A stretch of DNA of 64,000 bases from Collinsella sp. UBA6357 (GTDB lineage Bacteria > Actinomycetota > Coriobacteriia > Coriobacteriales > Coriobacteriaceae), in NCBI GenBank assembly GCA_002437815.1, contig DJRP01000028.1, positions 41,471 to 105,470 on the forward strand. Reading direction: 5' to 3'. Below the pieces are notes generated by a model, which was given only the letters and a program-made list of their open reading frames with translations, had not been told where the DNA came from and ran no database searches. The stretch's first letter is position 1; every line of letters begins with the position of its first letter. Position numbers and translations under genes: made by a program. This document shows, one piece after another, positions 2,432 to 54,435 of the stretch.

Positions 2432-3820
2432 ATGCTCGATTACAATTTGAACGAACGTGGATCCCTTACGCTGTACGAGTATATCTACCAGCGTATACGA
2501 GACGATATCGTCGATGGATCCATCGCTGCGGACGAGCATCTGCCTTCCAAGCGTACGCTTGCCGAACATCTAGCTACCAGTGTGATTACCATCGAGAATG
2601 CATATAGCCAGTTGGTTGCCGAAGGATATGTGTACACGCGACCGCGACAGGGGTTCTATGCAAGCGCCTTGCCCAAGACGCGCAGGGCTAAGCCTCGACA
2701 GGACGATGGCGAGCGGGATTCCTATTCACCGGTGGTTCGGGGGGCGGTGAAGGGCGGTTTACCCGCGCCGGCACCGCTCTCGCCCTCGGCGCTCGATGCG
2801 GCGCGGCTGTGGCAGCGTGCCCTCAGGGCGACGTTGACCTCAGAGGACGAGCGCGAGATCTTCGCTCCCGCTCCGGCCCAGGGCACGGAGCGGCTACGAG
2901 TCGCCATCGCGCGTCACTTGCGCGGTTCGCGCGGCATGAATGTCGATCCCGCGAACATCGTGGTCGGCGCCGGTGCGCAGCTGCTCGATACGATGCTCGT
3001 GCAGCTGCTGGGCCAAGAGCTGACCTATGCGGTCGAAGACCCCGGCTACCTGCGCCTCACGCATATCTACCAGGCAATGGGCTGCGAGGTGCGGCATATT
3101 CCGCTCGATGCCGAAGGTGTTTCTCTCGAGGCGCTTCGTTCGTCGGGCGCAGATGTGCTCCATCTGATGCCCTCGCATCAATATCCCACGGGGCTCGTCA
3201 CGTCGATCGCCCGTCGCTACGCCCTCATGAGCTGGGCTTCCGAGCGCTCGGGCCGCTATCTCATCGAGGATGACTTCGACTGCGAGTTTCGCCTCGCGGG
3301 ACGTCCTATCGCCCCGCTCGTCTCGATCGACGCGGCAGGTTCGGTCATCTACACCAACACGTTTTCGAAGAGCCTGTCCTCGGCGCTACGCTTGGCCTAC
3401 ATGGTGTTGCCGGATAAGCTCATGGCGCAGTTTGACCGCGATTTGGGCTTCTACGCCTCCTCGGTGAGTTCGATCGACCAGATCGCCTTGGCGCGTCTCC
3501 TTGAATCGGGAGAATACGAACGCCATGTGAGCCGTGTACGCAAGCGCGCCCGCGAGGCCCGTGACTGCATCGTGGACGCGGTCAAGCAGATTTGCTCTGA
3601 CGGGTCGATTGAGGTCGAGCATCCCGACGATGGCCTCTATTGCGTGCTTGCCGCCGAGGGTTCCGCGGCCGCCCGCATGACGGCGGATGCCATGCCGGTG
3701 ACACCGCTCGCCGATCATATATGGCGCGCGGAGAGTGCCGGTCCGGCGGACGGAAAGCGGCGTTTTCTGCTGCAGTATGAGCATGCCTCCGCGTTTGCCG
3801 AGGCCCTCCTCGGCGCATAG
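2432..3820 (+). CDS. pdxR: MocR-family regulator PdxR (GntR wHTH fused to a fold-type I aminotransferase-like domain)
   Basis: The N-terminus LYEYIYQRIRDDIVDGSIAADEHLPSKRTLAEHLATSVITIENAYSQLVAEGYVYTRPRQGFY is a GntR HTH. The C-terminal ~350 aa are aminotransferase-like (YTNTFSKSL). It is divergent from pdxST. I prefer the ATG at 2432 (AAGGG RBS) over the track TTG at 2399. Confidence 0.85.
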   Translation: MLDYNLNERGSLTLYEYIYQRIRDDIVDGSIAADEHLPSKRTLAEHLATSVITIENAYSQLVAEGYVYTRPRQGFYASALPKTRRAKPRQDDGERDSYSPVVRGAVKGGLPAPAPLSPSALDAARLWQRALRATLTSEDEREIFAPAPAQGTERLRVAIARHLRGSRGMNVDPANIVVGAGAQLLDTMLVQLLGQELTYAVEDPGYLRLTHIYQAMGCEVRHIPLDAEGVSLEALRSSGADVLHLMPSHQYPTGLVTSIARRYALMSWASERSGRYLIEDDFDCEFRLAGRPIAPLVSIDAAGSVIYTNTFSKSLSSALRLAYMVLPDKLMAQFDRDLGFYASSVSSIDQIALARLLESGEYERHVSRVRKRAREARDCIVDAVKQICSDGSIEVEHPDDGLYCVLAAEGSAAARMTADAMPVTPLADHIWRAESAGPADGKRRFLLQYEHASAFAEALLGA

Positions 3821-11720: not shown

Positions 11721-12485
11721 ATGAAACAGCTTTTGATCCGTGCCGATGATATCGGCTATTCGTATGCCGTCGATCTGGGAATCGCACGCGCCGTGAACGA
11801 GGGCCTCGTGCGCTCGGTGGGGCTTATGCCCAATATGCCCGAGGCCGCGCGGGGTTGGTCGCTTGTCGCTGACGCCGATATTGCCGTGGGTCAACATACC
11901 AACGTGTGCCTGGGAAAGCCCTGCGCCGACCCTGCACTCATCCCCAGCATGCTTGACGAACGCGGTGACTTCCATAGCAGCCGTACCTTCCGCGAGCACT
12001 ACAAGCGCGGCGAGGAGCTTGTGAGCTATGACGAGGCCGTTATCGAGATCGAGGCCCAGCATGATCGCTTTCTCGAGATCGTGGGCCGCGAGCCCGATTA
12101 CTTCGAGGCGCATGCCGTGATGAGCGACAACCTCAACCGCGCGATCGCCGACGTGGCAGCCGCACACGGGCTGCGCTGCCAGCCGGCGAGTTTCGACCCC
12201 ACGGCAAAGGTCCGTTGCGGCGACACGGACGTGCGCATGGTCATGCATTCGATGGAGCCGGGCTATGAGCCAAAGGCATCAATCATGGAGACGGTTCGCG
12301 GCATGGTCGACGGCGATACGGTGGTCTTTGTCTGCCATCCGGGCTATCTGGATCGTTTCATTCTCGAGCACAGCTCGCTCACGACCGACCGCACCAAAGA
12401 GGTCGATGCGCTCATCGACCCCGAACTTCGCGCCTGGCTTGAAGGGCAATCTGGCCTGCGGCTGATTGACTATCGCGAACTGTAG
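11721..12485 (+). CDS. ChbG/YdjC-family carbohydrate deacetylase
   Basis: MKQLLIRADDIGYSYAVDLGIARAVNEGLVRSVGLM and HPGY are present. An AGGAG RBS precedes ATG 11721. The 5-prime part of track ORF 11205-12485 overlaps the PTS gene and is rejected. Confidence 0.8.
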   Translation: MKQLLIRADDIGYSYAVDLGIARAVNEGLVRSVGLMPNMPEAARGWSLVADADIAVGQHTNVCLGKPCADPALIPSMLDERGDFHSSRTFREHYKRGEELVSYDEAVIEIEAQHDRFLEIVGREPDYFEAHAVMSDNLNRAIADVAAAHGLRCQPASFDPTAKVRCGDTDVRMVMHSMEPGYEPKASIMETVRGMVDGDTVVFVCHPGYLDRFILEHSSLTTDRTKEVDALIDPELRAWLEGQSGLRLIDYREL

Positions 12486-12496
12486 CGCATGCTGTT

Positions 12497-12535
12497 CGGC
12501 GTCGTTACCTGCATGGTGACGGCGCCGTTCTTTTT
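12497..12535 (+). terminator. Rho-independent terminator after the PTS-chbG operon
   Basis: A 13-bp stem CGGCGTCGTTACC/GGTGACGGCGCCG (two G-U pairs) has the loop TGCAT, followed by TTCTTTTT. Confidence 0.8.
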
Positions 12536-12592
12536 GTCCGCACGGGGCGCTAAAGTGTTGGCAGTCTGGAATACGGTTGCAGAGGAGCTGCC

Positions 12593-14446
12593 ATGAACGA
12601 GATCAAGTGTCCCCATTGCGGCGAGGTTTTCAAGGTCGATGCGTCCGGGTACGCCGATATCGTCAAGCAGGTGCGTGACGCTGAGTTTGCGCATGACGTG
12701 CACGAGCGCGAGGAGATTGCCCGGCGCGAGGGCACACAGGCGCTCGAGCTCGAGCGCTCCCAGGCGGCGGCGAACTTGCAGAAGGCTCTTGCCGAGCGTG
12801 ATGCCCAGATCGAACGCCTCAAGCACGAGGCGGCTTCGCAGCTGGCCGAGGCGCGTGCCAAGGGGGCGGCCGAGCTTACGGAGCAAAAGGGTGCCGCGGC
12901 CGCGGAGCTCGCGCGTGCGGTCGCTGATCGCGATGCCGAGCTTGCCGAGCTGCGCGCCAAGCTCGAGGCGGCGGCGGGAGAGCGTGAGGCGGCGCGCAAA
13001 CAGGCGGCCGCCGAGGCGCATGCTGCCGCGCAAAAGGATGCGGACGAGGAACGTGCCGCGGCACAGCAGGTTGCGGTCGAACTCCAACGTGAAGTCGACC
13101 GTCTGCGGGCGGAAGCCGCGCGCAATGCCGACGCCGTGAAGCTCGCAAAGGCCGCAGCACACGATGAGGCGCAGCAGGATCTCGCCGCCCGTGATGCTCA
13201 GATCGCCGAGCTCAAAGCGAAACTCGAAGCTGCCGATGGCGTGCGAGAGATGGCGTTGGCGCAGGCCGCGGCGGAAGCCGACCGCAAGGCTGCCGCGGCT
13301 CTTTCGGAGTCGGAGCGAAAGGCGGCCGATGGCCTTGCCGCAGCCCAGCGTGAGACCGAGGTCCTGCGCTCCCAACTCAAGATCCAGCAGAGCGAGGCTG
13401 CGGCCCATGAGGCCCAGGCCGTCGCCGCCGCCGAGCGGGAGCGCGACGAGGCACGTGCCAAGCTCACGAGCGAGCTCGCCGTGCGCGATTCGCGCGAGGA
13501 GCAGGCAAAGGCCGCCCATGAGCTCGAGCTCGCCCAGGCCAGGAGGGCGAGCGAGGAGCTCATTCGCTATAAGGACGAGGAAATCGAGCGTCTCAAGGAC
13601 ATGAAGGTGCGCCTGTCCACCAAAATGGTGGGCGAGAGCCTGGAGCAGCACTGCGAGACCGAGTTCAATCGTTTGCGCATGACGGCATTTCCTCATGCGT
13701 ATTTCGAGAAGGACAACGATGCGTCTGAGGGCACGAAGGGCGACTTCATCTTCCGTGAATGCGACGAGGCGGGCAACGAGATCATCTCCATCATGTTCGA
13801 GATGAAAAACGAGAACGATGAGACGGTGACCAAGCACAAGAACGAGGACTTCTTTAAAAAGCTCGACCACGATCGCAAGCAGAAGGGATGCGAGTATGCC
13901 GTGCTGTGCACGCTGCTCGAACCCGAGAGCGATTTTTACAACGCCGGTATCGTCGATGTGAGCTACCGCTACGAGAAGATGTATGTGATCCGCCCGCAGT
14001 TCTTTATCCCCATCATCACGCTGTTACGCAATGCCGCGCTTGGGTCGCTTCGCTACAAACAGGAACTTGCCGAATACAAGCAGCAGAATATCGACGTCAC
14101 GAACTTCGAGGCCAAGATGGAGAAGTTCAAAGACGGGTTCTCGCGCAACTACAACCTGGCGAGCAAACAGTTCGAGTCGGCCATCAAGGAGATTGATGCG
14201 GCCATCAAGCAGCTCGAGAAGACCAAGGACGATCTGCGCCGCAGCACCGAGAACCTGCGTCTGGCCCATAACAAGGCAGAAGATCTGACGATCCGCAAGC
14301 TCACTTGGGGCAACAAGACCATGAAGGCGGCGTTCGACGAGGCGCGTGAGGCGAGCCCGAAGGCTGGTGCAACGGATGACGCTGAGATGTCTGAGCAGTC
14401 TCCGGCGGTGGCTGACTCCTACGAGATCGGGGAAGATGGGGAATAA
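12593..14446 (+). CDS. DUF2130-family protein: N-terminal zinc ribbon, ~300-aa Ala/Glu-rich coiled coil, C-terminal PD-(D/E)xK-like module
   Basis: MNEIKCPHCGEVFKVDASGYADIVKQVRDAEF is the typical DUF2130 N-terminus. The C-terminal part carries GDFIFRE...ISIMFEMKNE. RBS is AGAGGAG. Confidence 0.7.
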   Translation: MNEIKCPHCGEVFKVDASGYADIVKQVRDAEFAHDVHEREEIARREGTQALELERSQAAANLQKALAERDAQIERLKHEAASQLAEARAKGAAELTEQKGAAAAELARAVADRDAELAELRAKLEAAAGEREAARKQAAAEAHAAAQKDADEERAAAQQVAVELQREVDRLRAEAARNADAVKLAKAAAHDEAQQDLAARDAQIAELKAKLEAADGVREMALAQAAAEADRKAAAALSESERKAADGLAAAQRETEVLRSQLKIQQSEAAAHEAQAVAAAERERDEARAKLTSELAVRDSREEQAKAAHELELAQARRASEELIRYKDEEIERLKDMKVRLSTKMVGESLEQHCETEFNRLRMTAFPHAYFEKDNDASEGTKGDFIFRECDEAGNEIISIMFEMKNENDETVTKHKNEDFFKKLDHDRKQKGCEYAVLCTLLEPESDFYNAGIVDVSYRYEKMYVIRPQFFIPIITLLRNAALGSLRYKQELAEYKQQNIDVTNFEAKMEKFKDGFSRNYNLASKQFESAIKEIDAAIKQLEKTKDDLRRSTENLRLAHNKAEDLTIRKLTWGNKTMKAAFDEAREASPKAGATDDAEMSEQSPAVADSYEIGEDGE

Positions 14447-14466
14447 TATTTTTTGAAAATTGTCAG

Positions 14467-14494
14467 TTGACTTCGCTTGAGTAAAGCGTATTAT
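14467..14494 (+). promoter_or_regulatory. Candidate sigma70-type promoter of the Ile-leader transcript
   Basis: TTGACT (14467-72), a 16-nt spacer, then TATTAT (14489-94). Confidence 0.55.
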
Positions 14495-14556
14495 CTCAGT
14501 CACATTACGGGAGCGGCACCTGTTGGTGCTGCCGGTCTTAGCAAGAGGTGTTTTGC

Positions 14557-14601
14557 ATGCGTCATATCGGCAACATTATTATTACCAGCATTATTAGCTA
14601 G
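14557..14601 (+). CDS. Leader peptide MRHIGNIIITSIIS (14 codons, 6 Ile)
   Basis: It is not in the ORF track because it is under 60 aa. An AGAGG RBS at 14544-48 lies 8 nt before the ATG. Five of the six Ile codons are ATT. The stop codon overlaps the first arm of the downstream alternative hairpins. Confidence 0.55.
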   Translation: MRHIGNIIITSIIS

Positions 14602-14684
14602 TACGGGTTGCCGATGATGGCTGCCCGTACGTTGCGGGCAGCCTAGTATACCGGAGGCTGCAATTTGCGGTCTCCGGTTTTTTG
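14601..14684 (+). promoter_or_regulatory. Attenuator: four mutually exclusive stem-loops ending in an intrinsic terminator
   Basis: Pairing 1:2 is GTACGGG (14601-07) with CCCGTAC (14624-30). Pairing 2:3 is GGCTGCCCG (14619-27) with CGGGCAGCC (14635-43). Pairing 3:4 is GCAGCC (14638-43) with GGCTGC (14656-61). Pairing 4:5 is CCGGAGGCTGC (14651-61) with GCGGTCTCCGG (14667-77), followed by TTTTTT (14678-83). Confidence 0.6.
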
Positions 14685-14748
14685 TTGCTCGCAATGTTTG
14701 TTATCGCGAATACCCCCTATCGATAAAATCATTGCGAAAGGAACAATC

Positions 14749-15558
14749 ATGTCCAACGTCAAACTCAACGCCAAGCAGAACGAGCTCGTCGAGGCCCTCT
14801 ACGGCGCCTACGTTAAAAACGACGCGGGCGAGAAGAACGAACCGCTCACCATGGCTGACTGGGAAGGTGTCGTCACCGATGATGACGCTGCCTATGCCGT
14901 ACAGGATGCCGTCATGGCCAAGAAAGGAGTTCCCGTTGCGGGCTACAAGGTCTCGTTGACATCCAAGGAAACCCAGGACATGTTCGATTCCGACTGTCCG
15001 CTCTATGGAGCGCAGGTCGCCGAGCGATTTTTTGCCTCGCCGGTGACGCTTTCGCTCAACCGTTTCAACGAGCCGCTCGTCGAGGTCGAGTTCTGCTTCC
15101 ATGCCAAGGAGGACCTGAGTGCGTCAGACTCGCTCGACGACCTGCTCTCCAAGTGCACCGTCGCGGCCGATATGGAGGTGCCCGATGCGCGCTTCGCTCA
15201 GTGGTTCCCCACGCTCTCCAAGTACCTCGTTATGAGCGACTGCGCCGTGGGCGGTTGCGTCGTCTACGGCAAGGAGGTCGACGGTAGCGAGCTCACGGTC
15301 GACGGTATGGCCGGCTACCATGCCAAGTGCTATCACGATGGCGCGTTCGTCAAGGAGGGCGACACCTCCGAGATCCTCGGCAATCCCGTCAAGTCGCTCC
15401 AGTGGCTCGTGGGCAAGCTCGAGAGCCAGGGCAAGCGCTTTACCCGTGGCATGCGCGTCTCCGTCGGCACCGTGTTCGTGCCCGTGGCGTTTACCAAGGG
15501 TGTCTGGACCGTCGAGTTCGATGGACCCTTCGGCAAGCTCGAGGTGACGGCCGAGTAG
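14749..15558 (+). CDS. FAH-fold hydratase/decarboxylase family protein (2-keto-4-pentenoate hydratase / MhpD-HpcG-like)
   Basis: 269 aa from ATG 14749. Its length and pattern (AYAVQDAV..GYKVSLTS..EVEF..) fit the MhpD/HpaH/4-oxalocrotonate decarboxylase family. The specific substrate is unknown. Confidence 0.6.
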   Translation: MSNVKLNAKQNELVEALYGAYVKNDAGEKNEPLTMADWEGVVTDDDAAYAVQDAVMAKKGVPVAGYKVSLTSKETQDMFDSDCPLYGAQVAERFFASPVTLSLNRFNEPLVEVEFCFHAKEDLSASDSLDDLLSKCTVAADMEVPDARFAQWFPTLSKYLVMSDCAVGGCVVYGKEVDGSELTVDGMAGYHAKCYHDGAFVKEGDTSEILGNPVKSLQWLVGKLESQGKRFTRGMRVSVGTVFVPVAFTKGVWTVEFDGPFGKLEVTAE

Positions 15559-15583
15559 ATGACCTTTGGGTTCAAATGAGCGA

Positions 15584-15620
15584 GGCGCCCTCGGTGAAAA
15601 ACCGAGGGCGCCCCGCTTTA
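15584..15620. terminator. Bidirectional terminator between the hydratase gene and the convergent helicase gene
   Basis: A perfect 11-bp stem GGCGCCCTCGG (15584-94) / CCGAGGGCGCC (15602-12) has the loop TGAAAAA. Confidence 0.75.
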
Positions 15621-15636
15621 TTCGGTTTGGCAGCCG

Positions 15637-18369
15637 TTACAGGTCTTCGAGCAGGTCCTCGATAAAGCCCACACGGTAGTTCTTGAAGATGACCTCGCCG
15701 CCGTCCTGGGTGGCATCGAGGTCGACGTCGCCCATGATGCCAAAGTCGTGGTCGCCGTCCTCGTCGGCGAAGATCTGGTGCACGTGCCACACGTGATCGC
15801 TCTTCTCGTCCGATTCGTCGATCGTGAACATCGCCGTCGAGTGAGCATCGCCATCGGTGAGGATTTCCTCATGCTGCTCGTGGTAGGTGTCGAGCGCCTT
15901 TTGCCAGCGCACCTCGCCCATACCCCACTCACTGTCGAGCTCTCCCAGGTCGCGCACGTGTCCGCGCGCGGCAAGCGTCACACGGCGGAAGAGGGCGTTG
16001 CGCACGAGCAGCGTGCATCCGCGGCGGTCGGCCACGACCTCGTCGATGCCCTTGGGCGGAGCGGCGTCGAGCGCGGCGGGGTTGCCGGCGTTCTCCCACT
16101 CGTCGACCAGGCTCGAGTCAACGGAGCGCACCACGAAACCGAGCCAGCTGATGATGTCGTTCAGGCGCTCGTCGCGTTTCTCGATGGGCACGGTACGGTC
16201 GAGAGAACGGTAGGCCTCGGCCAGGTAGCGCAGGAGGATGCCCTCTGAGCGGGCGATGCCGAGCTTTTGGATATAGCCCTTGAAGTCGCTTGCGCTCTCG
16301 AGCATATCGCGCAGGACGCTCTTGGGGGAGAGGCGGTAATCGTTGGCCCAGGGGACCTCTTGGCAGTATCTGTAAAATGCGGCATCGAGCAGGTCCTCGA
16401 GGGGCTTCTCATACGTGACGTCTTGGATGCGCTCGAGACGCTCTTCGTATTCGATGCCGTCCGCCTTCATCTCGGCCATGGCGCGGTCGCGGGCGGCGCG
16501 TTCCTGGGCGCGGAGCACCTGCTTGGGATCCTCGAGCGTGGCCTCGACCATAGAGATGAGGTCCATGGTGTAGGTCTCGCTCTCGGGATCGAGGAGCTCC
16601 AGCGCCGCGAGTAAAAACGGCGAGAGCGGTTGGTCGAGCGCGAAGTCGTCGGGCAGGTCGACGGTGAGGGCATAGTCGATGTCGGGCTCGGTGTCCGCAG
16701 ATGCTCCCGGCGCCGGCGGGACCTCCGTGCGCACGACGACGCCGGAATCGATGAGCGTGGCGAAGACCTCGTCAGCGCGAAGCTCGAGCTTGGTCTTCTC
16801 CTCGGGGGTCTGCAGACTCGTCTCGATCAGGTCGTGCACGCGGGCGCGTGCGTCGCCGCCTTGCTCCACCACGCTGATCACCATGGAATGTGTGATGCGA
16901 AGACGCGGCTTGAGCGTCTCGGGCTGCGTCTCGATCAGGCGCTGATAAGTCTGCTTATTCCAGGTTACAAAGCCCTCGGGTGCCTTTTTCTTCTTGATCT
17001 TGCGGAGCTTCTTGGGGTCGTCGCCCGCTTTGGCCATGAGCTTGGCGTTCTCGATCTCGTGTTCCGGTGCCTCGGCGATGACCATGCCCTCGGTGTCAAA
17101 GCCCGAGCGCCCGGCGCGACCGGCGATCTGGTGGAACTCGCGGGCGCGCAGGCGGCGCATCTTGTATCCGTCGAACTTGGTGAGCGCCGTGAGCAGCACG
17201 GTATGGATGGGCACGTTGATGCCGACGCCGAGCGTGTCGGTGCCGCAGATCACGGGCAGAAGGCCCTGCTGCGCCAAGCGCTCGACGAGCAGGCGGTAGC
17301 GCGGCAGCATGCCGGCGTGGTGCACGCCCACGCCGCAGCCGAGCAGGCGCTTCAGGATCTTGCCGAAGGCGGTCGAGAAGCTCGTGCCGCGGGAAGCCTC
17401 TTTGATGGCCTCGCGCTGCTCCTTAGTCGCGATGCCGAAGTTCGCAAGCGACTGGGCCGTGGAAAGTGCGGCGTCCTGGCTGAAGTGCACGATGTAGAGC
17501 GGGGCCTCGCCGCGGCGCATGGCGAGCTCGACGGTTCCCTCGATGGAGGTCGTGACGTAGTCATAGCTGAGCGGTACGGGGCGCGGCGCGTCGACGACGA
17601 GATCGCAGGCGGCACCGGTGTGCTCCTCGAGCGAGGCCGCGATGGCGGTGACGTCGCCGAGGGTGGCGCTCATGAGCATGAACTGCGTATGGGGAAGCGT
17701 GAGCAGAGGAACCTGCCAGGCCCAACCGCGGTCGGGGTCGGCGAAGTAATGGAACTCGTCCATGGCCACGCAGCCTACATCGGCACCCTCTCCTTCGCGC
17801 AGGGCGTCGTTGGCAAGGATCTCGGCCGTGCAGCAGATCACGGGTGCCTTGGTGTTGATGTGCGTGTCGCCCGTGATCATGCCTACATTGTCGCGGCCGA
17901 GCACCTGGACAAGGTCGAAAAACTTCTCGCTCACGAGCGCCTTGATGGGCGCGGTGTAGTAGCAGCGTTTGCCTTGGGCCATGCCCATGAAGAGCATGCC
18001 GAGTGCGACGAGCGACTTGCCCGATCCCGTGGGGGTGCCCAGGATCACGTGATCGCCGGCTGCGAGGTCCATGAGGGCTTCTTCCTGGTGGTCCCAGAGT
18101 TCGATTCCGCGCTCGGCCGTCCATTCGTAGAAGCGCTCGAACGCCTCGTCGGGGGCGAGCCAAGGCTCGGGCTCGCTGCCGTCCTCGGGCTCCCACCAGG
18201 TGGGGGAGAGGCTCCCGAGCGAGCCGAACTCCGCCTCGGTACCGGTGCCGCCGGCAAAGGAGCTCGCCGCGCCGGCGCCGGTGACGGGTGCTGCGCTCAC
18301 GGCAGAGTTTTGGTCGGTATCGGTTTTGTTTGATGCCATATCGCTGCTTTCTATCGTTTCATCTGTCAT
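15637..18369 (-). CDS. DEAD/DEAH-box SF2 helicase with a long C-terminal DUF3516-like region (actinobacterial Ski2-like type)
   Basis: 910 aa. Motif I is GTPTGSGKS, motif II is MDEFHY, and SAT and QIAGRAGRSG are present. About 400 aa follow the helicase core. Confidence 0.8.
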   Translation of the reverse strand: MTDETIESSDMASNKTDTDQNSAVSAAPVTGAGAASSFAGGTGTEAEFGSLGSLSPTWWEPEDGSEPEPWLAPDEAFERFYEWTAERGIELWDHQEEALMDLAAGDHVILGTPTGSGKSLVALGMLFMGMAQGKRCYYTAPIKALVSEKFFDLVQVLGRDNVGMITGDTHINTKAPVICCTAEILANDALREGEGADVGCVAMDEFHYFADPDRGWAWQVPLLTLPHTQFMLMSATLGDVTAIAASLEEHTGAACDLVVDAPRPVPLSYDYVTTSIEGTVELAMRRGEAPLYIVHFSQDAALSTAQSLANFGIATKEQREAIKEASRGTSFSTAFGKILKRLLGCGVGVHHAGMLPRYRLLVERLAQQGLLPVICGTDTLGVGINVPIHTVLLTALTKFDGYKMRRLRAREFHQIAGRAGRSGFDTEGMVIAEAPEHEIENAKLMAKAGDDPKKLRKIKKKKAPEGFVTWNKQTYQRLIETQPETLKPRLRITHSMVISVVEQGGDARARVHDLIETSLQTPEEKTKLELRADEVFATLIDSGVVVRTEVPPAPGASADTEPDIDYALTVDLPDDFALDQPLSPFLLAALELLDPESETYTMDLISMVEATLEDPKQVLRAQERAARDRAMAEMKADGIEYEERLERIQDVTYEKPLEDLLDAAFYRYCQEVPWANDYRLSPKSVLRDMLESASDFKGYIQKLGIARSEGILLRYLAEAYRSLDRTVPIEKRDERLNDIISWLGFVVRSVDSSLVDEWENAGNPAALDAAPPKGIDEVVADRRGCTLLVRNALFRRVTLAARGHVRDLGELDSEWGMGEVRWQKALDTYHEQHEEILTDGDAHSTAMFTIDESDEKSDHVWHVHQIFADEDGDHDFGIMGDVDLDATQDGGEVIFKNYRVGFIEDLLEDL

Positions 18370-18460
18370 TCATTATGGCGGAGCTCGCGGATGCCGGGCC
18401 GTAATGTCCGAAAATGCCGAATATCGTCGTGTAGGACACCATTACCAACGCTTTGTTTTG

Positions 18461-18582
18461 CGTTATGTGTAGGTTAAATCGGCCAAGCCGACTATACAGG
18501 TATCTCGACAGCATTTTACCTGCGAAAACGTGAGCGAAAGCCATCCTATATCCGGCCTATTTCCTTAGACCTACACATAACG
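18461..18582. repeat. Long-hairpin element copy A (122 bp)
   Basis: Terminal inverted repeats are CGTTATGTGTAGGT (18461-74) and ACCTACACATAACG (18569-82). Inner arms are partly complementary (GCCGACTATA / TATATCCGGC). The conserved centre ACCTGCG lies at 18518-24, exactly mid-element. The element sits 5 nt downstream of the stop of the 18587-19750 gene. Confidence 0.8.
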
Positions 18583-18586
18583 AAGA

Positions 18587-19750
18587 CTATCGTCTCTTTT
18601 GGCGACCTCGATCGCATCTCCAGCGTTCTTGAGTGCCGATTGTTTCCCAGTCGACGAAGATATTTCGCCGTAAATCGAGCTCAGCTTCCTTTTCCGTCGG
18701 CGTCTTGTCGCGAAACTCCATGGATATCTTCTCGAAGATCAGGCGCCTGAGGACATCAAATTGTTGCTGGCTTGATATTTGTTGATACGTGATAAAGACA
18801 ATCTCATAACCCATGGTAGACAGAGCGGTTGCTCTGTCGGCATCCGAGTCTTTAACTCCGCCGACTCCGTGCGAGATGCGCCCTTGACACTCAAGCGCCA
18901 GGTCATGCTCACCGTCCTCGGATGTCAAGTAGATATCGATATAGGCGCGTTTGTTCTTGCATAGTTTTCGAGCGTCGGCACTTAACATGACTTCGTGGTT
19001 GTTTGAGATCGATAAACCCTCCCCACCGCTCGACCTTGGTAAGAACAGCAGCAAAGAGAGCTGTGCCTCGAAGGGGGATGCCGTTACTCCCGAAACCATG
19101 TGGAAGGCGCTTGCGAGACGTTTGTTCCCACGAATGCCTCTCGTCGATTCGATGAATTTGCCAAGCTCATGCAGCTCGACGAGCGGGGCTCGCGACCAGA
19201 GGTTGCTGGGGGTTCCGTCATCGCCGGCGATGCGTTTCCATCCATCGACTCCCTTGGCCAGCTCCTGGCGATACGGGGCAAGGAGCTCCTCTATCGTGTC
19301 GCTCGGGTTGAAGATGGCAAAGGAGCCGCACATCTCATATATCGCCAGCGCGAGGCGTTCCGTCGTAACCGTGCTCGCAAGAGAGAGGAGCGTCATTTCC
19401 GGCGAAGTGACCTTGAAGTCATGCTCGGTTTCGCGTATCGATCCAAAGGGTAGATCGGCGCTGCACACCCTGTGCTTGAAACACTTTGCGTTCGTACGAT
19501 GCTTTGCGTTGGGGACCAGGATGTTGAGGGGAAAGCCTATCGCGTCCGTCAGGGTGAGATTCGAAGTGAGATCGCTGTGGTGGACATTCGATTCATCAAT
19601 CGTGACCATCGGCAGCAGCGAGAGTACCGGGGGTGGAATCCGGTAGTAGTTGAAAGCCGATATGTTGCAAAGCGTAATGTCCATGATGGACATAGCGTAC
19701 CCGCCGAGCGAGCATTCCAAAACGCTGGGGAGGGAGTGACCGTTTGGCAT
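18587..19750 (-). CDS. Orphan protein with a C-terminal DUF559/Vsr-like (PD-(D/E)xK) endonuclease-type domain, in a low-GC patch
   Basis: The C-terminus reads RAYIDIYLTSEDGEHDLALECQGRISHG...DADRATALSTMGYEIVFITYQQI. This fits the DUF559 pattern (D..w....vE.DG..H....D..R...L...G..v.R.t). The upstream part resembles the N-terminal regions that accompany DUF559 in actinobacterial proteins (VTSPEMTLLSLAS, SPFEAQLSLLL). The start is uncertain (ATG 19750, 19693 or 19684) and no clear RBS is visible. Confidence 0.55.
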   Translation of the reverse strand: MPNGHSLPSVLECSLGGYAMSIMDITLCNISAFNYYRIPPPVLSLLPMVTIDESNVHHSDLTSNLTLTDAIGFPLNILVPNAKHRTNAKCFKHRVCSADLPFGSIRETEHDFKVTSPEMTLLSLASTVTTERLALAIYEMCGSFAIFNPSDTIEELLAPYRQELAKGVDGWKRIAGDDGTPSNLWSRAPLVELHELGKFIESTRGIRGNKRLASAFHMVSGVTASPFEAQLSLLLFLPRSSGGEGLSISNNHEVMLSADARKLCKNKRAYIDIYLTSEDGEHDLALECQGRISHGVGGVKDSDADRATALSTMGYEIVFITYQQISSQQQFDVLRRLIFEKISMEFRDKTPTEKEAELDLRRNIFVDWETIGTQERWRCDRGRQKRR

Positions 19751-51537: not shown

Positions 51538-51797
51538 GGGGTGCTCCTTTGCGAAAATCCGGATGGATCGGGTGCTGATGGATAAGGTTGTACGCATTCT
51601 AGCGTGAACACGGACCCCGGGCACGCCCCGCTTTGGAATAGACGGGCAGCCACCCCTGAAATGCTGCGGAAATATTGGAAACACGCTGGTTACATGCGCT
51701 GCCGCGTAACAAATCGTTCACGTTTGCCCCATAGCATCTCTCGATGTACCGCACAAAGGCCGCGCTACTTGCTCGGCCCCGACGGATGGGGGATACC

Positions 51798-52964
51798 ATG
51801 ACCTGTCTCAACCATGCACTCGATCGCAGACATTTTCTAGGCGGTGTCGCCGCGCTTGGCAGCACCGCGCTGCTCGCTGGCTGCTCTTCGGGGGCGACGG
51901 ATGACGGTTCCGGCTCCGATGACGGATCGTTCAAGATCGGTATGATCGGCCCTCTTACGGGCGCGGCGGCCACTTACGGCGTCTCGGCCGAGCAGGGCGC
52001 CAAACTCGCCGTCAAGGACTTCTCGACCAAGTCGCTTAAGCTCGTGCTTAAATCCGAGGACGATGTCGCCGACGGCGAGAAGGCCATCAATGCGTTCAAC
52101 ACGCTTGCCGACTGGGGCATGCAGGCGCTTGTGGGCCCTGTTACCACCGGTGCGGCCGTTGCCGTCTCGGGCGAGATCTCCGATGACATGCTCATGATCA
52201 CGCCGTCGGCATCCTCGCTCGATGTCACCAAGGGCAAGTCGACGGTTTTCCAGGTGTGCTTTACCGACCCCACGATGGGCACGAGCGCCGCTAAGTTCTT
52301 GGCGGAGAAATACGCTGACCAAAAGATCGCCCTGTTCTACAACGCGGGCGACACCTACAGCTCGGGTGTGGCGGACGCCTTTGCCGCGCAGGCCAAGAAG
52401 TCCAAGCTCGACGTCGTGGCGACGGAGACCTTCAAAGACGATTCGTCCACAAGCTTCACCACGCAGCTCACCTCGGTCAAGGAGGCCGGTGCCACGCTCA
52501 TCTTTGCACCGATTTACTACACGCCCGCCTCGGTTCTGCTTAAAAATGCGAGCGACATGGGCTACGACATGACGCTCATGGGCACCGACGGTATGGACGG
52601 TTTGCTTTCGGTCGAGGGCTTCGACACTTCGCTTGCCGAGGGCGTGCTGCTCATGACCCCGTTCTCCGCCGATGACGAGAAAAACGCCGACTTCGTCAAG
52701 GCGTACCAAGATGAGTACGGCGAGACGCCCAACCAGTTCGCCGCCGACGCCTACGATTGCGTGCATGCCATCGTCGAGGCGATCGATAAGGCCGGTATCG
52801 ATACGGCGGGCGCGGGATCCGATATCGCCACGGACCTTGCGAAAGCGATGCGCAAGATCAAGATCGACGGGTTGACCGGTGAGCTTTCGTGGAACGACAA
52901 GGGTCAGGTCGAGAAGCCCGCCACGGCCTATGTCATCCAGGACGGCAAATACATCGCGGCGTAG
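51798..52964 (+). CDS. Liv-type (PBP1) ABC substrate-binding lipoprotein, paralogue 1
   Basis: The twin-arginine plus lipobox signal is DRRHFLGGVAALGSTALLAGC. FKIGMIGPLTGAAATYG is present. The start is ATG 51798. Confidence 0.8.
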   Translation: MTCLNHALDRRHFLGGVAALGSTALLAGCSSGATDDGSGSDDGSFKIGMIGPLTGAAATYGVSAEQGAKLAVKDFSTKSLKLVLKSEDDVADGEKAINAFNTLADWGMQALVGPVTTGAAVAVSGEISDDMLMITPSASSLDVTKGKSTVFQVCFTDPTMGTSAAKFLAEKYADQKIALFYNAGDTYSSGVADAFAAQAKKSKLDVVATETFKDDSSTSFTTQLTSVKEAGATLIFAPIYYTPASVLLKNASDMGYDMTLMGTDGMDGLLSVEGFDTSLAEGVLLMTPFSADDEKNADFVKAYQDEYGETPNQFAADAYDCVHAIVEAIDKAGIDTAGAGSDIATDLAKAMRKIKIDGLTGELSWNDKGQVEKPATAYVIQDGKYIAA

Positions 52965-53241: not shown

Positions 53242-54435
53242 ATGTCGAGCCTCACCGGTAAGTCATTCAACCCTGTTATGAATCGCAGGAGCGTTATCGC
53301 GAGCGCAGCAGGTCTGGGGGCTACGGCTATTCTAGCCGGTTGCTCCTCCAACGGCGGAGATTCCAAGTCCGGTTCCGCTTCCGAGGGCGGTACCTTCAAG
53401 ATCGGCACCATCGGACCGCTGACCGGTGCCGCCGCCTCCTACGGCAAGTCCGTCACCCAGGGCGTCGAGCTCGGTTGCAAGGACTTCTCCACCAAGAGCC
53501 TGAAACTCACCAGTAAGGCCGAGGATGACGTCGCCGACGGCGAGAAGTCCGTCAACGCCTTCAATAACCTCTGCGACTGGGGCATGCAAGCTCTTGTCGG
53601 CCCCACCACCACCGGTGCGTCGGTTGCCGTCGCCGAGGAGTGCGCCAAGGACCCCAAGATGTTCATGATCACCCCGTCCGCGTCCTCCACGGACGTCACC
53701 AAGGGCAAGGACAACGTCTTCCAGGTCTGCTTCACCGATCCCAACCAGGGCGTCAACGCCGCCAAGTTCCTTGCCGACAAGTATCCCGACGAGAAGTACG
53801 TCCTGTTCTACAACTCCGGCGACGCATACTCCTCGGGTATCGCCGACGCCTTCAAGGCCCAGGCAAAGAAGTCTAAGCTTGAGGTTGTTGACGTGGAGAC
53901 CTTCAAGGACGATTCCGCCACCAGCTTCACCAACCAGTTGACCAAGGCCAAGGAGGCTGGCGCCACCATGATCTTCGCGCCAATCTACTATACTCCGGCG
54001 TCTGTCCTGCTCAAGAACGCCAAGGACATGGGCTATGACGTCAAGATGATGGGTTGCGACGGCATGGACGGCATCTTGGGCGTCGAGGGCTTCGATACCT
54101 CTCTCGCCGAGGGCCTGCTGCTCATGACCCCGTTCTCCGCCGACGACGAGAAGAATGCTGACTTCGTCAACGCCTATAAGGACAAGTACGGCGAGACGCC
54201 CGACCAGTTTGCCGCCGATGCCTATGATGGCGTGCATGCCGTGGCCGAGGCTCTGAAAGAGGCCGGCCTGGGTGCTGATGCCGATGCGACCGAGGTGGCC
54301 GAGAAGCTGTCCGAGGCTATGCGCAAGATCAAGGTCGAGGGCCTCACGGGCAACCTTTCCTGGAACGATAAGGGCCAGGTGCAGAAGGATCCCACGGCTT
54401 ATGTCATCACCGACGGCAAGTACGTACAGGCCTAA
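53242..54435 (+). CDS. Liv-type (PBP1) ABC substrate-binding lipoprotein, paralogue 2
   Basis: The signal is NRRSVIASAAGLGATAILAGC. The protein is colinear with paralogue 1 along its full length, with many identical blocks (FQVCFTDP, IFAPIYYTPASVLLKNA, LLMTPFSADDEKNADFV). Confidence 0.8.
   Translation: MSSLTGKSFNPVMNRRSVIASAAGLGATAILAGCSSNGGDSKSGSASEGGTFKIGTIGPLTGAAASYGKSVTQGVELGCKDFSTKSLKLTSKAEDDVADGEKSVNAFNNLCDWGMQALVGPTTTGASVAVAEECAKDPKMFMITPSASSTDVTKGKDNVFQVCFTDPNQGVNAAKFLADKYPDEKYVLFYNSGDAYSSGIADAFKAQAKKSKLEVVDVETFKDDSATSFTNQLTKAKEAGATMIFAPIYYTPASVLLKNAKDMGYDVKMMGCDGMDGILGVEGFDTSLAEGLLLMTPFSADDEKNADFVNAYKDKYGETPDQFAADAYDGVHAVAEALKEAGLGADADATEVAEKLSEAMRKIKVEGLTGNLSWNDKGQVQKDPTAYVITDGKYVQA

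Follow-up and report, generated by a model that had tools for sequence, protein, structure and literature searches.

The closest described counterparts of the element analysed here are the enterobacterial his, ilvGMEDA/ilvBN and thr leaders. They have in common with the present locus a promoter, a short leader rich in cognate codons, mutually exclusive hairpins and a terminator, and in both cases the choice between the two sets of pairings depends on where the stop codon lies. The correspondence extends to the six segments (A-F) of the his leader, as in both systems A:B, C:D and E:F go with termination and B:C and D:E with read-through. Nevertheless, there is no sequence or covariance-model similarity to the enterobacterial leaders and the host is a Gram-positive member of the Coriobacteriia. 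Moreover, the leader described here contains Ile codons only, arranged in pairs and triplets, rather than a long run or a mixture of Ile, Val, Leu and Thr codons, and it precedes a single gene that is not recognised as biosynthetic.

Within the same phylum, the ilvB leaders of Corynebacterium, Mycobacterium and Streptomyces precede ilvBNC and carry mixed Ile/Val/Leu codons (PMC1262725); the Corynebacterium ilvB uORF is also described as the ilvB-II motif (PMC10272879). As in our locus, they include a short ORF with codons for branched-chain amino acids, and a terminator hairpin with a poly-U tract either follows this ORF or is overlapped by it. The present element differs from them in that it lies before an MhpD-like hydratase gene, has Ile codons only and possesses a complete antiterminator chain that is backed by covariation. 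The case of Streptomyces coelicolor illustrates that actinobacterial look-alikes can mislead: mutation of the codons in its attenuator-like ilvB leader left regulation unchanged, and the leader did not act like a classical attenuator (PMC1262725). For the Coriobacteriia we found no leader-peptide attenuator in the literature searched, in agreement with the original prediction that was followed up here, whose author was aware of none.

The element is located in the genome of Collinsella sp. UBA6357, within the window (the whole stretch of 64,000 nucleotides that was analysed), and its features are collected in Table 1. Judged by its sequence and by folding models it is a leader-peptide attenuator of the classical class, with a promoter and leader ORF of its own, clustered cognate codons, an intrinsic terminator, a linked antiterminator and, in silico, the appropriate footprint geometry. 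We consider it highly likely that it represents a ribosome-mediated transcription attenuator that senses charged tRNA-Ile and controls a single, almost Ile-free MhpD/HpcG-like gene. The leader very probably switches this downstream gene on under isoleucine shortage.

Table 1. Features of the leader region, its alternative helices and the regulated gene (positions are those of the window).
Feature	Position	Strand	Details
Sigma-70-type promoter	14467-14494	+	-35 TTGACT 14467-72, 16-nt spacer, -10 TATTAT 14489-94
GC-rich 5' hairpin	14513-14532	+	8-bp stem GCGGCACC/GGUGCUGC (folding)
Leader Shine-Dalgarno	14543-14548	+	AAGAGG, 8 nt 5' of ATG
Leader ORF	14557-14601	+	MRHIGNIIITSIIS + stop; 14 codons, ATG at 14557
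Leader Ile codons	14566; 14575/78/81; 14590/93	+	ATC; ATT x3; ATT x2
Segment A	14560-14574	+	inside leader coding region; pairs with B, core helix 14565-74
Segments B' and B	14601-14619	+	B' 14601-08 (partner C), B 14607-19 (partner A); start is last stop-codon base
Segments C' and C	14619-14630	+	C' 14619-29 (partner D), C 14623-30 (partner B')
Segments D and D'	14633-14644	+	D 14633-43 (partner C'), D' 14638-44 (partner E)
Intrinsic terminator	14650-14684	+	E' 14650-62, loop, F 14666-78, T-run 14679-84
Helix A:B	14565-74 with 14607-16		UAUCGGCAAC/GUUGCCGAUG, 10 bp; -12.2 kcal/mol
Helix B':C	14601-08 with 14623-30		GUACGGGU/GCCCGUAC, 8 bp including one G-U; -12.6 kcal/mol
Helix C':D	14619-29 with 14633-43		11 bp, 3-nt loop; -22.1 kcal/mol
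Helix D':E (antiterminator)	14638-44 with 14655-61		7 bp; -11.8 kcal/mol
Helix E':F (terminator)	14650-62 with 14666-78		13 pairs, 8 GC, then TTTTTT; -22.8 kcal/mol
Post-terminator stem	14682-14746	+	core 14689-96 with 14730-37; brackets hydratase Shine-Dalgarno AAGGA 14738-42
MhpD/HpcG-family hydratase/decarboxylase-like gene	14749-15558	+	269 aa, monocistronic
Terminator after hydratase gene	15584-15612

The promoter, the Shine-Dalgarno sequence and the 14-codon ORF were all recovered at the positions where they had been predicted. The promoter agrees with the consensus at 10 of 12 positions and is the sole promoter-like match on the + strand between 12000 and 19000. Between the predicted transcription start and the leader Shine-Dalgarno sequence sits the GC-rich 5' hairpin; by eye, the orthologous leaders discussed below have a GC-rich hairpin in the equivalent position. 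The leader reads ATG CGT CAT ATC GGC AAC ATT ATT ATT ACC AGC ATT ATT AGC TAG, and 6 of its 14 codons specify Ile (counted as 6 in 13 codons, where the ORFs of the window have 4.7% Ile, p = 1.4e-5). The prediction that five of the six would be ATT in a neighbourhood that favours ATC holds as well: ATT makes up only 11.5% of the Ile codons in 39 long ORFs (ATT 93, ATC 617, ATA 102; p = 1.1e-4 for the 5/6 of the leader) and the ATT:ATC ratios in the neighbouring genes are 3:20, 0:1 and 0:42. No second ORF in the window (ATG-started, 6-40 codons, at least 4 Ile) came near the Ile density of the leader, and the regions upstream of the LivJ-like binding-protein genes (51744-, 53242-) lack both a leader ORF and a terminator-like match on the + strand.

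The transcript can form five successive mutually exclusive helices, the last of which is the 13-bp terminator with its run of six T residues. Helix A:B joins leader codons 3-6 to the segment directly after the stop codon. At the other end of the chain, segment E (14655-61) is contained in the 5' arm E' of the terminator; terminator and antiterminator are mutually exclusive. Four of the helices had been predicted. B':C and D':E are present, with 8 bp (including one G-U) and 7 bp, respectively; C':D is present too, yet with 11 bp rather than 9, and the stem that precedes TTTTTT has 13 pairs where 11 bp had been proposed. Helix A:B had been missed; it supplies the terminating state in the absence of translation and makes the layout his-like. 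The proposed ribosome-mediated Ile attenuator is supported in everything that it predicts for the sequence, and the arrangement has six segments. The suggested folding of 14500-14700 yielded a z-score of -7.0, which was equalled by 0 of 200 shuffles. Folding also suggested UACGGG (14506-11) as a second partner of C; this candidate was rejected as it is not conserved in three of the related leaders (L001, L002 and L005).

Whether ribosome position could flip the structure was modelled by thermodynamic folding under a ribosome footprint, using nascent transcripts without the 3' terminator arm of 14 leaders (that of the window and 13 orthologous ones). With the ribosome stalled at the first II pair the antiterminator was formed in 11/12 and 12/13 leaders, and with the ribosome at the stop codon the C':D form was obtained in 11/14 (9/14 without a ribosome), leaders without C':D under either of the latter masks being ambiguous. 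Both halves of the predicted switch were thus reproduced. A single ribosome at the last two Ile codons mostly led to predicted termination. When segment A was covered in addition, stalls at the last II pair sequestered the terminator arm in 14/14 and 11/13 leaders, against only 2/14 for a ribosome at the stop codon. The role of the conserved last II pair is explained only in part.

For the window, the decision-point energies are -24.4 kcal/mol for B':C plus D':E, -22.1 for C':D alone and -34.3 for A:B plus C':D. C':D is much stronger than B':C and could displace it. In the complete transcript, the minimum-energy fold consists of A:B, C':D and the terminator under every ribosome mask, so that a switch governed by thermodynamics alone on the full-length RNA was rejected and the nascent transcripts were modelled instead. 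As the terminator form is always the minimum, read-through must be decided kinetically, as in other attenuators, and would need a kinetic trap; we infer that the choice is made before the 3' terminator arm is synthesized.

The following course of events would be consistent with these data. Transcription would start from the leader promoter and the leader, which is presumably translated, would be read while the polymerase makes six segments with two modes of pairing. When isoleucine is sufficient, the ribosome would reach the stop codon (14599-14601) and cover B'; in the absence of translation, A:B would form instead and give the terminating state. With B' covered or A:B formed, C':D would form and lock up D', E':F would follow and transcription would stop at the T-run. 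When isoleucine is short, the ribosome would stall on the ATT/ATC codons and cover A, leaving B' free. Such stalling should flip the structure: B':C would form and prevent C':D, and D' would pair with E, allowing read-through into the hydratase gene. In addition, A:B may act as a pause or synchronisation hairpin.

The decisive evidence that the arrangement is more than a product of chance is its conservation in orthologous loci, a search for which had been proposed together with the prediction. The comparative set comprises 13 related loci of the Atopobiaceae (Coriobacteriia) that carry the orthologous gene, which together with the window gives 14 leaders from about six lineages. All 13 keep the -35 box, the Shine-Dalgarno sequence, the ORF, the hairpins, the T-run terminator and both RNA conformations, while their neighbourhoods are otherwise unrelated. 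More specifically, 14/14 leaders have a TTGAC -35 box, and the leader ATG follows it at a distance of 67-108 nt. Each orthologous leader shows a purine-rich stretch resembling a Shine-Dalgarno sequence before the ATG, the ATG is invariant among the aligned leaders, and in every leader the stop codon is followed by B' at a distance of 0-4 nt. The orthologous ORFs have 13-16 codons and end in II-x-x-II-(S/R)-stop, apart from one variant that ends in IIICR (L083). In one further lineage of the Atopobiaceae (L085/L086) the gene is preceded by a plain promoter, and the leader is missing.

Both conformations are also reflected in the covariation, which was evaluated on an alignment (A2) that was not fitted to any structure. 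In the terminating conformation 75.6% of the cells were paired, compared with 35-46% when the partners were slid; 13 pairs were changed on both sides and the covariation score was reached by 0 of 500 shuffles. For the antiterminating conformation (B':C, D':E) the corresponding values were 82.8% against 38-54%, with 6 pairs changed on both sides and again 0 of 500 shuffles. Helix A:B covaries, for instance in L006 (CATCTGCA/TGCAGATG) and L007 (CATCAACC/GGTTGGTG), and D':E shows compensatory changes (columns 94:115: AU 6, GC 4, GU 1). It might be argued that the terminator merely serves to end the upstream DUF2130 gene (12593-14446) and that the Ile-rich ORF and the pairings are coincidental, considering that the element is intergenic and lies 240 nt downstream of that gene. 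However, the promoter separates the DUF2130 gene from the leader, and the upstream neighbours differ between loci (an oxidoreductase, a mechanosensitive channel, an HTH_5 regulator and others), whereas leader and terminator always accompany the hydratase gene. Together with the enrichment statistics and the covariation, the comparative data effectively refute such a coincidence, to which we attach practically no probability.

The region behind the terminator could point to another level of control. The stem that brackets the hydratase Shine-Dalgarno sequence (-18.7 kcal/mol, z = -2.5) may add a translational layer, although the evidence for this is weak. Segment D can also pair with 14684-97, and some actinobacterial T-boxes and leaders are known to act translationally (PMC9413887, PMC1262725). 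Translation of the leader might exert the Ile-dependent control without the intrinsic terminator, by affecting the access of Rho, the stability of the mRNA or the start of translation at the hydratase Shine-Dalgarno sequence. We nevertheless judge this to be very improbable: the GC-rich stem and the T-run are present in 13/13 orthologous leaders and the 5' arm of the stem exactly partners D', whereas the post-terminator stem is weak and its pair GCTCGCAATG...CATTGCGAAAGGA is kept in the closest relatives only (L001-L005, by eye).

A comparison with the known RNA families did not reveal a relative of the element. No Rfam family was reached at gathering thresholds in the whole window, be it a T-box or a His, Leu, Trp or other leader, and at permissive thresholds the best match in the region was Thr_leader (RF00506), whose score of 17.6 bits (E = 4.5) lies below its gathering score of 55. 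A metagenome scan with ATTATYNNNNNNATTATYNGCTAG for leaders of this type in front of other genes returned at least 120 matches, mostly on AT-rich contigs; among the matches listed none was a leader, and the best candidate (L124) was rejected, being inside a coding region.

The product of the regulated gene carries '2-keto-4-pentenoate hydratase' as its sole annotation. It shares full-length homology with the family of MhpD, HpcG (HpaH) and 4-oxalocrotonate decarboxylase (E about 1e-12 for PDB 2eb4 and 1sv6 and 7e-22 for the profile), including the Lys and three Glu residues: K67, E112, E114 and E143 are (near-)invariant and align with the GxK and EVE...E(L/V)xDAR motifs of 2eb4 and 1sv6. From the HpcG and MhpD structures we take these residues to be the metal/catalytic site. 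In contrast to the members of that family, this hydratase is found outside an aromatic-degradation cluster, is essentially devoid of Ile and is predicted to be under Ile control. It stays far below the NCBIfam equivalog cut-offs for HpaH, MhpD, DmpE and DmpH (73.5 vs 351.5, 53.1 vs 408.8, 51.4 vs 350 and 37.1 vs 350.6 bits). The protein has a single Ile in 269 residues (p = 3.4e-5), and the median among 120 homologues is 0. Such 'low cognate bias' is known for enzymes that have to be made when the cell is starved of their cognate amino acid (PMC4209129), and the near-absence of Ile in the hydratase is an extreme of it.

A second association with isoleucine was found in the Lactobacillaceae, where the orthologous genes have a T-box directly upstream (Rfam matches; core motif in 68/71 loci). 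Its specifier was AUC (Ile) in all 15 alignments read. Both this codon and the AUU/AUC codons of the leader are decoded by tRNA-Ile(GAU). The Ile-specific T-boxes on the orthologues demonstrate by an independent route that the charging of tRNA-Ile is the relevant signal. The two systems (the T-box being RF00230) are alike in this signal, in the terminator/antiterminator output and in the gene family, but a T-box binds the uncharged tRNA directly, whereas the attenuator would rely on ribosome stalling at the Ile codons. In lactobacilli, the gene that follows often encodes an Ile-poor L- or D-2-hydroxyacid dehydrogenase, and an Ile-poor aminotransferase also flanks the hydratase gene.

The fact that the lactobacilli employ a direct RNA sensor raises the question whether the leader might do the same, as a riboswitch or as a switch that binds a protein or a tRNA, detecting its ligand directly, with a short ORF that is incidental and untranslated. 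The structure is indeed very stable (z = -7) and conserved, and the nucleotide sequence of the ATTATT...ATTATT stretch shows high conservation. This stretch is, however, essentially unpaired in both conformations, so that its conservation is not explained by structure. Moreover, the regulatory Ile positions (46 ATT, 19 ATC, 0 ATA) change only synonymously between ATT and ATC, while the intervening codons change amino acid (T/A, S/T/A/V). Given also the invariant ATG, the Shine-Dalgarno sequence in all leaders, the stop codon that always abuts B' and the lack of an Rfam or T-box match in the region, direct sensing appears highly improbable.

An equally low probability is assigned to a role of the peptide itself, either as a nascent arrest peptide (ermCL/tnaC-like) that senses a drug or metabolite in the ribosome tunnel or as a functional hydrophobic micropeptide. 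The C-terminal IITSIIS/IIASIIR is conserved and the last residue is limited to S or R, as might be expected of such a peptide, yet the positions before the Ile pairs and between them are free to vary and the variant L083, with its shifted pattern (IIICR), has kept the hairpin logic. In addition, an Ile-specific T-box fills the same job in lactobacilli, and the regulated protein, which is Ile-free, agrees with isoleucine starvation rather than with a drug response; the gene behind the leader is not a resistance gene. Ribosome-mediated attenuation in response to charged tRNA-Ile remains the best explanation.

The attenuation mechanism as such is of the textbook kind, and the comparative support is unusually complete, as both conformations covary and the stop-codon spacing is conserved. 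The greater value of the regulation lies in the clue that it provides to the function of the gene. The presence of two unrelated RNA sensors in two phyla, on top of a protein purged of Ile, constitutes strong and directly testable evidence for an enzyme of isoleucine supply in lactic-acid bacteria of the gut, the oral cavity and food. A role of the hydratase in isoleucine supply is likely and previously undescribed; in the literature searched we found neither a T-box nor an isoleucine link for this hydratase. We tentatively propose, at somewhat less than an even chance, that the Atopobiaceae attenuator and the Lactobacillaceae Ile T-box define an isoleucine-starvation module in which the enzyme converts a 2-oxo or 2-hydroxy acid to 2-oxo-3-methylvalerate, the precursor of Ile. 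Metal-assisted enolisation or C3 epimerisation of 2-oxo-3-methylvalerate is a candidate for the step involved; alternatively, an unsaturated 2-oxo acid might be hydrated or dehydrated.

Many of the lactic-acid bacteria from these habitats are believed to rely on an outside supply of branched-chain amino acids. If the proposal is true, lactic-acid bacteria that are auxotrophic for Ile would have in this enzyme a means of salvaging isoleucine. The locus presents a natural case of a sensor swap, T-box versus leader peptide, on one orthologous gene, and two phyla would then have wired one enzyme to the charging of tRNA-Ile via two unrelated RNA mechanisms.

The element at 14467-14684 is very probably an isoleucine-sensing, ribosome-mediated attenuator, as the original prediction held on the basis of sequence, and fits best among the classical leader-peptide transcription attenuators. 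This reading is supported by conservation of the leader, covariation, ribosome-masked folding and the presence of Ile T-boxes on orthologous genes. The predicted promoter TTGACT-16-TATTAT (14467-14494), downstream of a DUF2130 gene (12593-14446), was confirmed with 10/12 consensus positions matched, and the promoter scan returned no other + strand promoter-like match in 12000-19000. The proposed ribosome binding site corresponds to a Shine-Dalgarno AAGAGG at 14543-48, 8 nt ahead of the ATG at 14557, and the 14-codon Ile-rich ORF reads exactly as first described. A GC-rich 8-bp hairpin (14513-14532) lies close to where the transcript is predicted to begin, ahead of the Shine-Dalgarno site; by eye, orthologous leaders have one in the same position, and it might serve as 5'-end stabilisation or as a pause element.

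The isoleucine content of the leader (6/13 codons) is unusual (p = 1.4e-5), and no other ATG-started ORF of 6-40 codons with at least four Ile in the window approaches its density. The suspected ATT bias also held: five of the six Ile codons are ATT, which is unusual (p = 1.1e-4) because the 39 long ORFs of the window use 93 ATT, 617 ATC and 102 ATA. The ATT preference might leave the regulatory stretch free of structure, or else slow decoding via G:U wobble. The regulated ORF starts 65 nt past the T-run and has a terminator of its own (15584-15612), beyond which lies a convergent helicase gene; the regulated unit is thus a single gene.

Features of the attenuator region (window positions) and leader peptides of orthologous loci (L numbers). 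Segments A to F are successive pairing stretches of the leader RNA; primes denote overlapping versions.
Feature	Position	Strand	Details
Leader ORF	14557-14601	+	ATG CGT CAT ATC GGC AAC ATT ATT ATT ACC AGC ATT ATT AGC TAG = MRHIGNIIITSIIS
Helix A:B	14565-74 with 14607-16		UAUCGGCAAC/GUUGCCGAUG; -12.2 kcal/mol
Helix B':C	14601-08 with 14623-30		8 bp; -12.6 kcal/mol
Helix C':D	14619-29 with 14633-43		11 bp; -22.1 kcal/mol
Helix D':E	14638-44 with 14655-61		7 bp; -11.8 kcal/mol
Helix E':F	14650-62 with 14666-78		13 bp; -22.8 kcal/mol
Terminator-like hairpin	14650-14678	+	13 pairs, then TTTTTT
Regulated ORF	14749-15558	+	269 aa
Leader peptide, L001			MNYNGNIIITSIIS
Leader peptide, L002, L003, L005			MRNIGNNIITSIIS
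Leader peptide, L006			MRTICINIASIIS
Leader peptide, L007			MSRINHSIEIIATIIS
Leader peptide, L008			MSRINNAIEIIAAIIS
Leader peptide, L009			MFNPQDRIITSIIR
Leader peptide, L081			MLNPQDRIITSIIR
Leader peptide, L083			MRSISTIFSSIIICR
Leader peptide, L087			MQNVNINIIASIIR
Leader peptide, L088			MNCTMNTFEIIAVIIS
Leader peptide, L090			MWHVNAIIIASIIR

An exhaustive stem search recovered all four pairings that had been proposed (1:2, 2:3, 3:4 and 4:5, here B':C, C':D, D':E and E':F) and a fifth that had been missed, A:B, which joins leader codons 3-6 to the segment just past the stop codon. Folding of 14500-14700, the check suggested earlier, gave z = -7.0. A:B, C':D and E':F form the terminating set and B':C and D':E the antiterminating set. 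B':C plus D':E (-24.4 kcal/mol) is slightly ahead of C':D alone at the decision point, whereas A:B plus C':D wins at -34.3 kcal/mol when A is free. Whatever stretch the ribosome masks, the full-length transcript has its energy minimum in A:B, C':D and the terminator, and therefore the decision must be kinetic, as it is for trp and his attenuation.

Nascent transcripts were thus folded up to the terminator loop, with the 3' arm not yet made and with a masked ribosome footprint that reached 18 nt upstream and 11 nt downstream of the first base in the A-site codon. Stalling on the Ile codons had been proposed to favour 1:2 and 3:4, and in the model a ribosome at the first II pair indeed gives B':C and D':E (11/12 and 12/13 leaders). 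With the ribosome at the stop codon, the position proposed to favour 2:3, C':D is predicted in 11/14 leaders, the remainder being ambiguous; with no ribosome, A:B plus C':D is predicted in 9/14. When segment A is covered too, for example by a trailing ribosome, a stall at the last II pair would tie up 5 nt or more of the terminator 5' arm in 14/14 and 11/13 leaders, and a ribosome at the stop codon would do so in only 2/14. The six-segment attenuation logic established for the his leader of Salmonella and E. coli is shared by the element, which resembles the classical enterobacterial attenuators in mode of working and layout. It differs from the Rfam leader families in matching none of their models; across the whole window no family reached the Rfam gathering score.

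Homologues of the hydratase form two groups, an Atopobiaceae-like one (Olsenella, Parolsenella; 70-97% identity) and a Lactobacillaceae one (51-62%), for which we retrieved 80 genomic loci and nine more via six protein look-ups. The arrangement of leader and hairpins, which the original prediction suggested seeking in relatives, precedes the hydratase gene in 13 assessable Atopobiaceae loci, with different neighbours in almost every lineage. These leaders have a TTGAC -35 box 67-108 nt 5' of the ATG, a Shine-Dalgarno site and a 13-16-codon ORF, followed by the hairpins and a T-run terminator. Ile positions vary only between ATT and ATC (46 ATT, 19 ATC, 0 ATA), the amino acids encoded between them change, and segment B' starts 0-4 nt past the stop codon. 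Such a pattern is typical of an ORF that is translated and whose Ile codon identity and stop position are what counts.

Both conformations, taken from the window sequence, are also conserved, with compensatory changes, in A2, a plain MAFFT alignment of 14 leaders (about six lineages) fitted to no structure. In the terminating conformation 75.6% of cells are paired versus 35-46% with partners slid by 1-3 columns, and 13 pairs changed on both sides (covariation score 0.254, reached by 0/500 shuffles). The antiterminating conformation has 82.8% paired versus 38-54%, with six pairs changed on both sides (0.264, 0/500 shuffles). For instance, A:B reads AUCGGCAAC/GUUGCCGAU in the window, CAUCUGCA/UGCAGAUG in L006 and CAUCAACC/GGUUGGUG in L007, and one D':E pair is A-U in six leaders and G-C in four.

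The element is wholly absent from one Atopobiaceae lineage (L085/L086), where the hydratase gene stands behind a plain TTGACA promoter (1300-1500) with neither leader ORF nor terminator. In the Olsenella uli group (L007, L008, about 2950-3010) the terminator-to-gene spacer is 158-261 nt versus 35-90 nt elsewhere, and the hydratases (P0009-P0035, 283 aa) carry a 14-residue Cys-rich N-terminal extension (MSENESCCCSCATTKPA...). Atopobiaceae-type loci with hydratases 80-88% identical to that of the window occur on contigs labelled Collinsella, Oribacterium and Faecalibacterium prausnitzii (L001, L004, L005, L006), which are probably mis-assigned or mislabelled metagenome bins. Downstream of the window's terminator a stem at 14682-14746 (core UCGCAAUG/CAUUGCGA, 14689-96 with 14730-37; -18.7 kcal/mol, z = -2.5; conserved in L001-L005 only) brackets the hydratase Shine-Dalgarno site, and the D stretch 14629-42 can form a 14-bp helix, G-U pairs included, with 14684-97; together these may form a second, translational control layer.

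In the Lactobacillaceae the orthologue lies directly behind a T-box (Rfam RF00230, 63-127 bits, 15 loci examined), and the core motif GGTGGTACCGCG occurs within 650 nt upstream in 68/71 loci (at most two mismatches). The three bases ahead of the conserved purine on the 3' side of the specifier loop were read as the specifier, which is the isoleucine codon AUC in 15/15 alignments. Judged from these codons, T-box and AUU/AUC leader both monitor tRNA-Ile(GAU); thus, two unrelated RNA mechanisms in two phyla would connect the same gene family to the same signal. A second T-box, downstream of the hydratase gene of Lactobacillus sp. Sy-1 (L043, 4296-4542), serves a different downstream gene, because its specifier is AUG (Met).

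The sequence places the 269-aa product within the MhpD/HpcG (HpaH)/4-oxalocrotonate decarboxylase family as a distant member: its matches to NCBIfam models fall far under the equivalog cut-offs, PDB entries 2eb4 and 1sv6 match with E of about 1e-12, and the GxK lysine and EVE...ExxDAR glutamates of these are kept. It contains one Ile in 269 residues versus 12.6 expected (p = 3.4e-5). Indeed, the family is essentially isoleucine-free: the 120 homologues (P0001-P0120; Atopobiaceae, Lactobacillaceae) have a median of 0 Ile versus medians of 28 Val and 28 Leu. In Ile-richer homologues the residues mostly lie in fused C-terminal regions or in N-terminal extensions, the latter likely miscalled starts. 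The exception is P0036, whose five internal Ile are the most of any correctly delimited homologue and which belongs to the attenuator-less lineage L085/L086; this single case would fit relaxed selection in a lineage that lacks Ile control. The depletion is an extreme case of low cognate bias, the known tendency of enzymes required when an amino acid runs short to contain little of that amino acid (PMC4209129).

The gene partners share this trait. In 14 Lactobacillaceae loci an Ldh-family gene comes after the hydratase gene on its strand, and in 6 loci a PanE/ApbA-family gene does; a class I/II aminotransferase gene is nearby in 18 loci (examples among L010-L080: L033 3845-4789, L012 1375-2313, L027 1132-2334). 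Their Ile shares are 0.6%, 1.6% and 3.0%, respectively, versus 6.15% for other ORFs of the same loci. Hydratase and partners resemble a module for isoleucine starvation that works on 2-oxo or 2-hydroxy acids. The depletion suggests, rather than proves, a function in isoleucine salvage or supply involving such acids. Within the window, the tandem LivJ-like (Peripla_BP_6) genes 51744-52964 and 53242-54435, separated by an AT-rich 278-nt spacer, have upstream neither a leader ORF (by eye) nor a + strand terminator-like match (scan), and therefore the Ile attenuator is not general to the window's candidate branched-chain transporter genes.

In the actinobacterial genera Corynebacterium, Mycobacterium and Streptomyces, leader-peptide candidates have been reported ahead of trp, ilvB, leuA and cys genes (PMC1262725; PMC10272879), and the genomes analysed in PMC1262725 included no Coriobacteriia. 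When the codons of the S. coelicolor ilvB leader were mutated, it failed to act as a classical attenuator would (PMC1262725), which by analogy is a warning for the attenuator reading of the present element. In line with the original prediction, the literature searched gave no description of a leader-peptide attenuator for Coriobacteriia. It also gave no link of the hydratase family to isoleucine or T-boxes. The proposed isoleucine attenuator is noteworthy for its taxon and for the completeness of its comparative support. Above all, on sequence grounds, it would place an isoleucine-free, uncharacterised family of enzymes within the response to isoleucine starvation.
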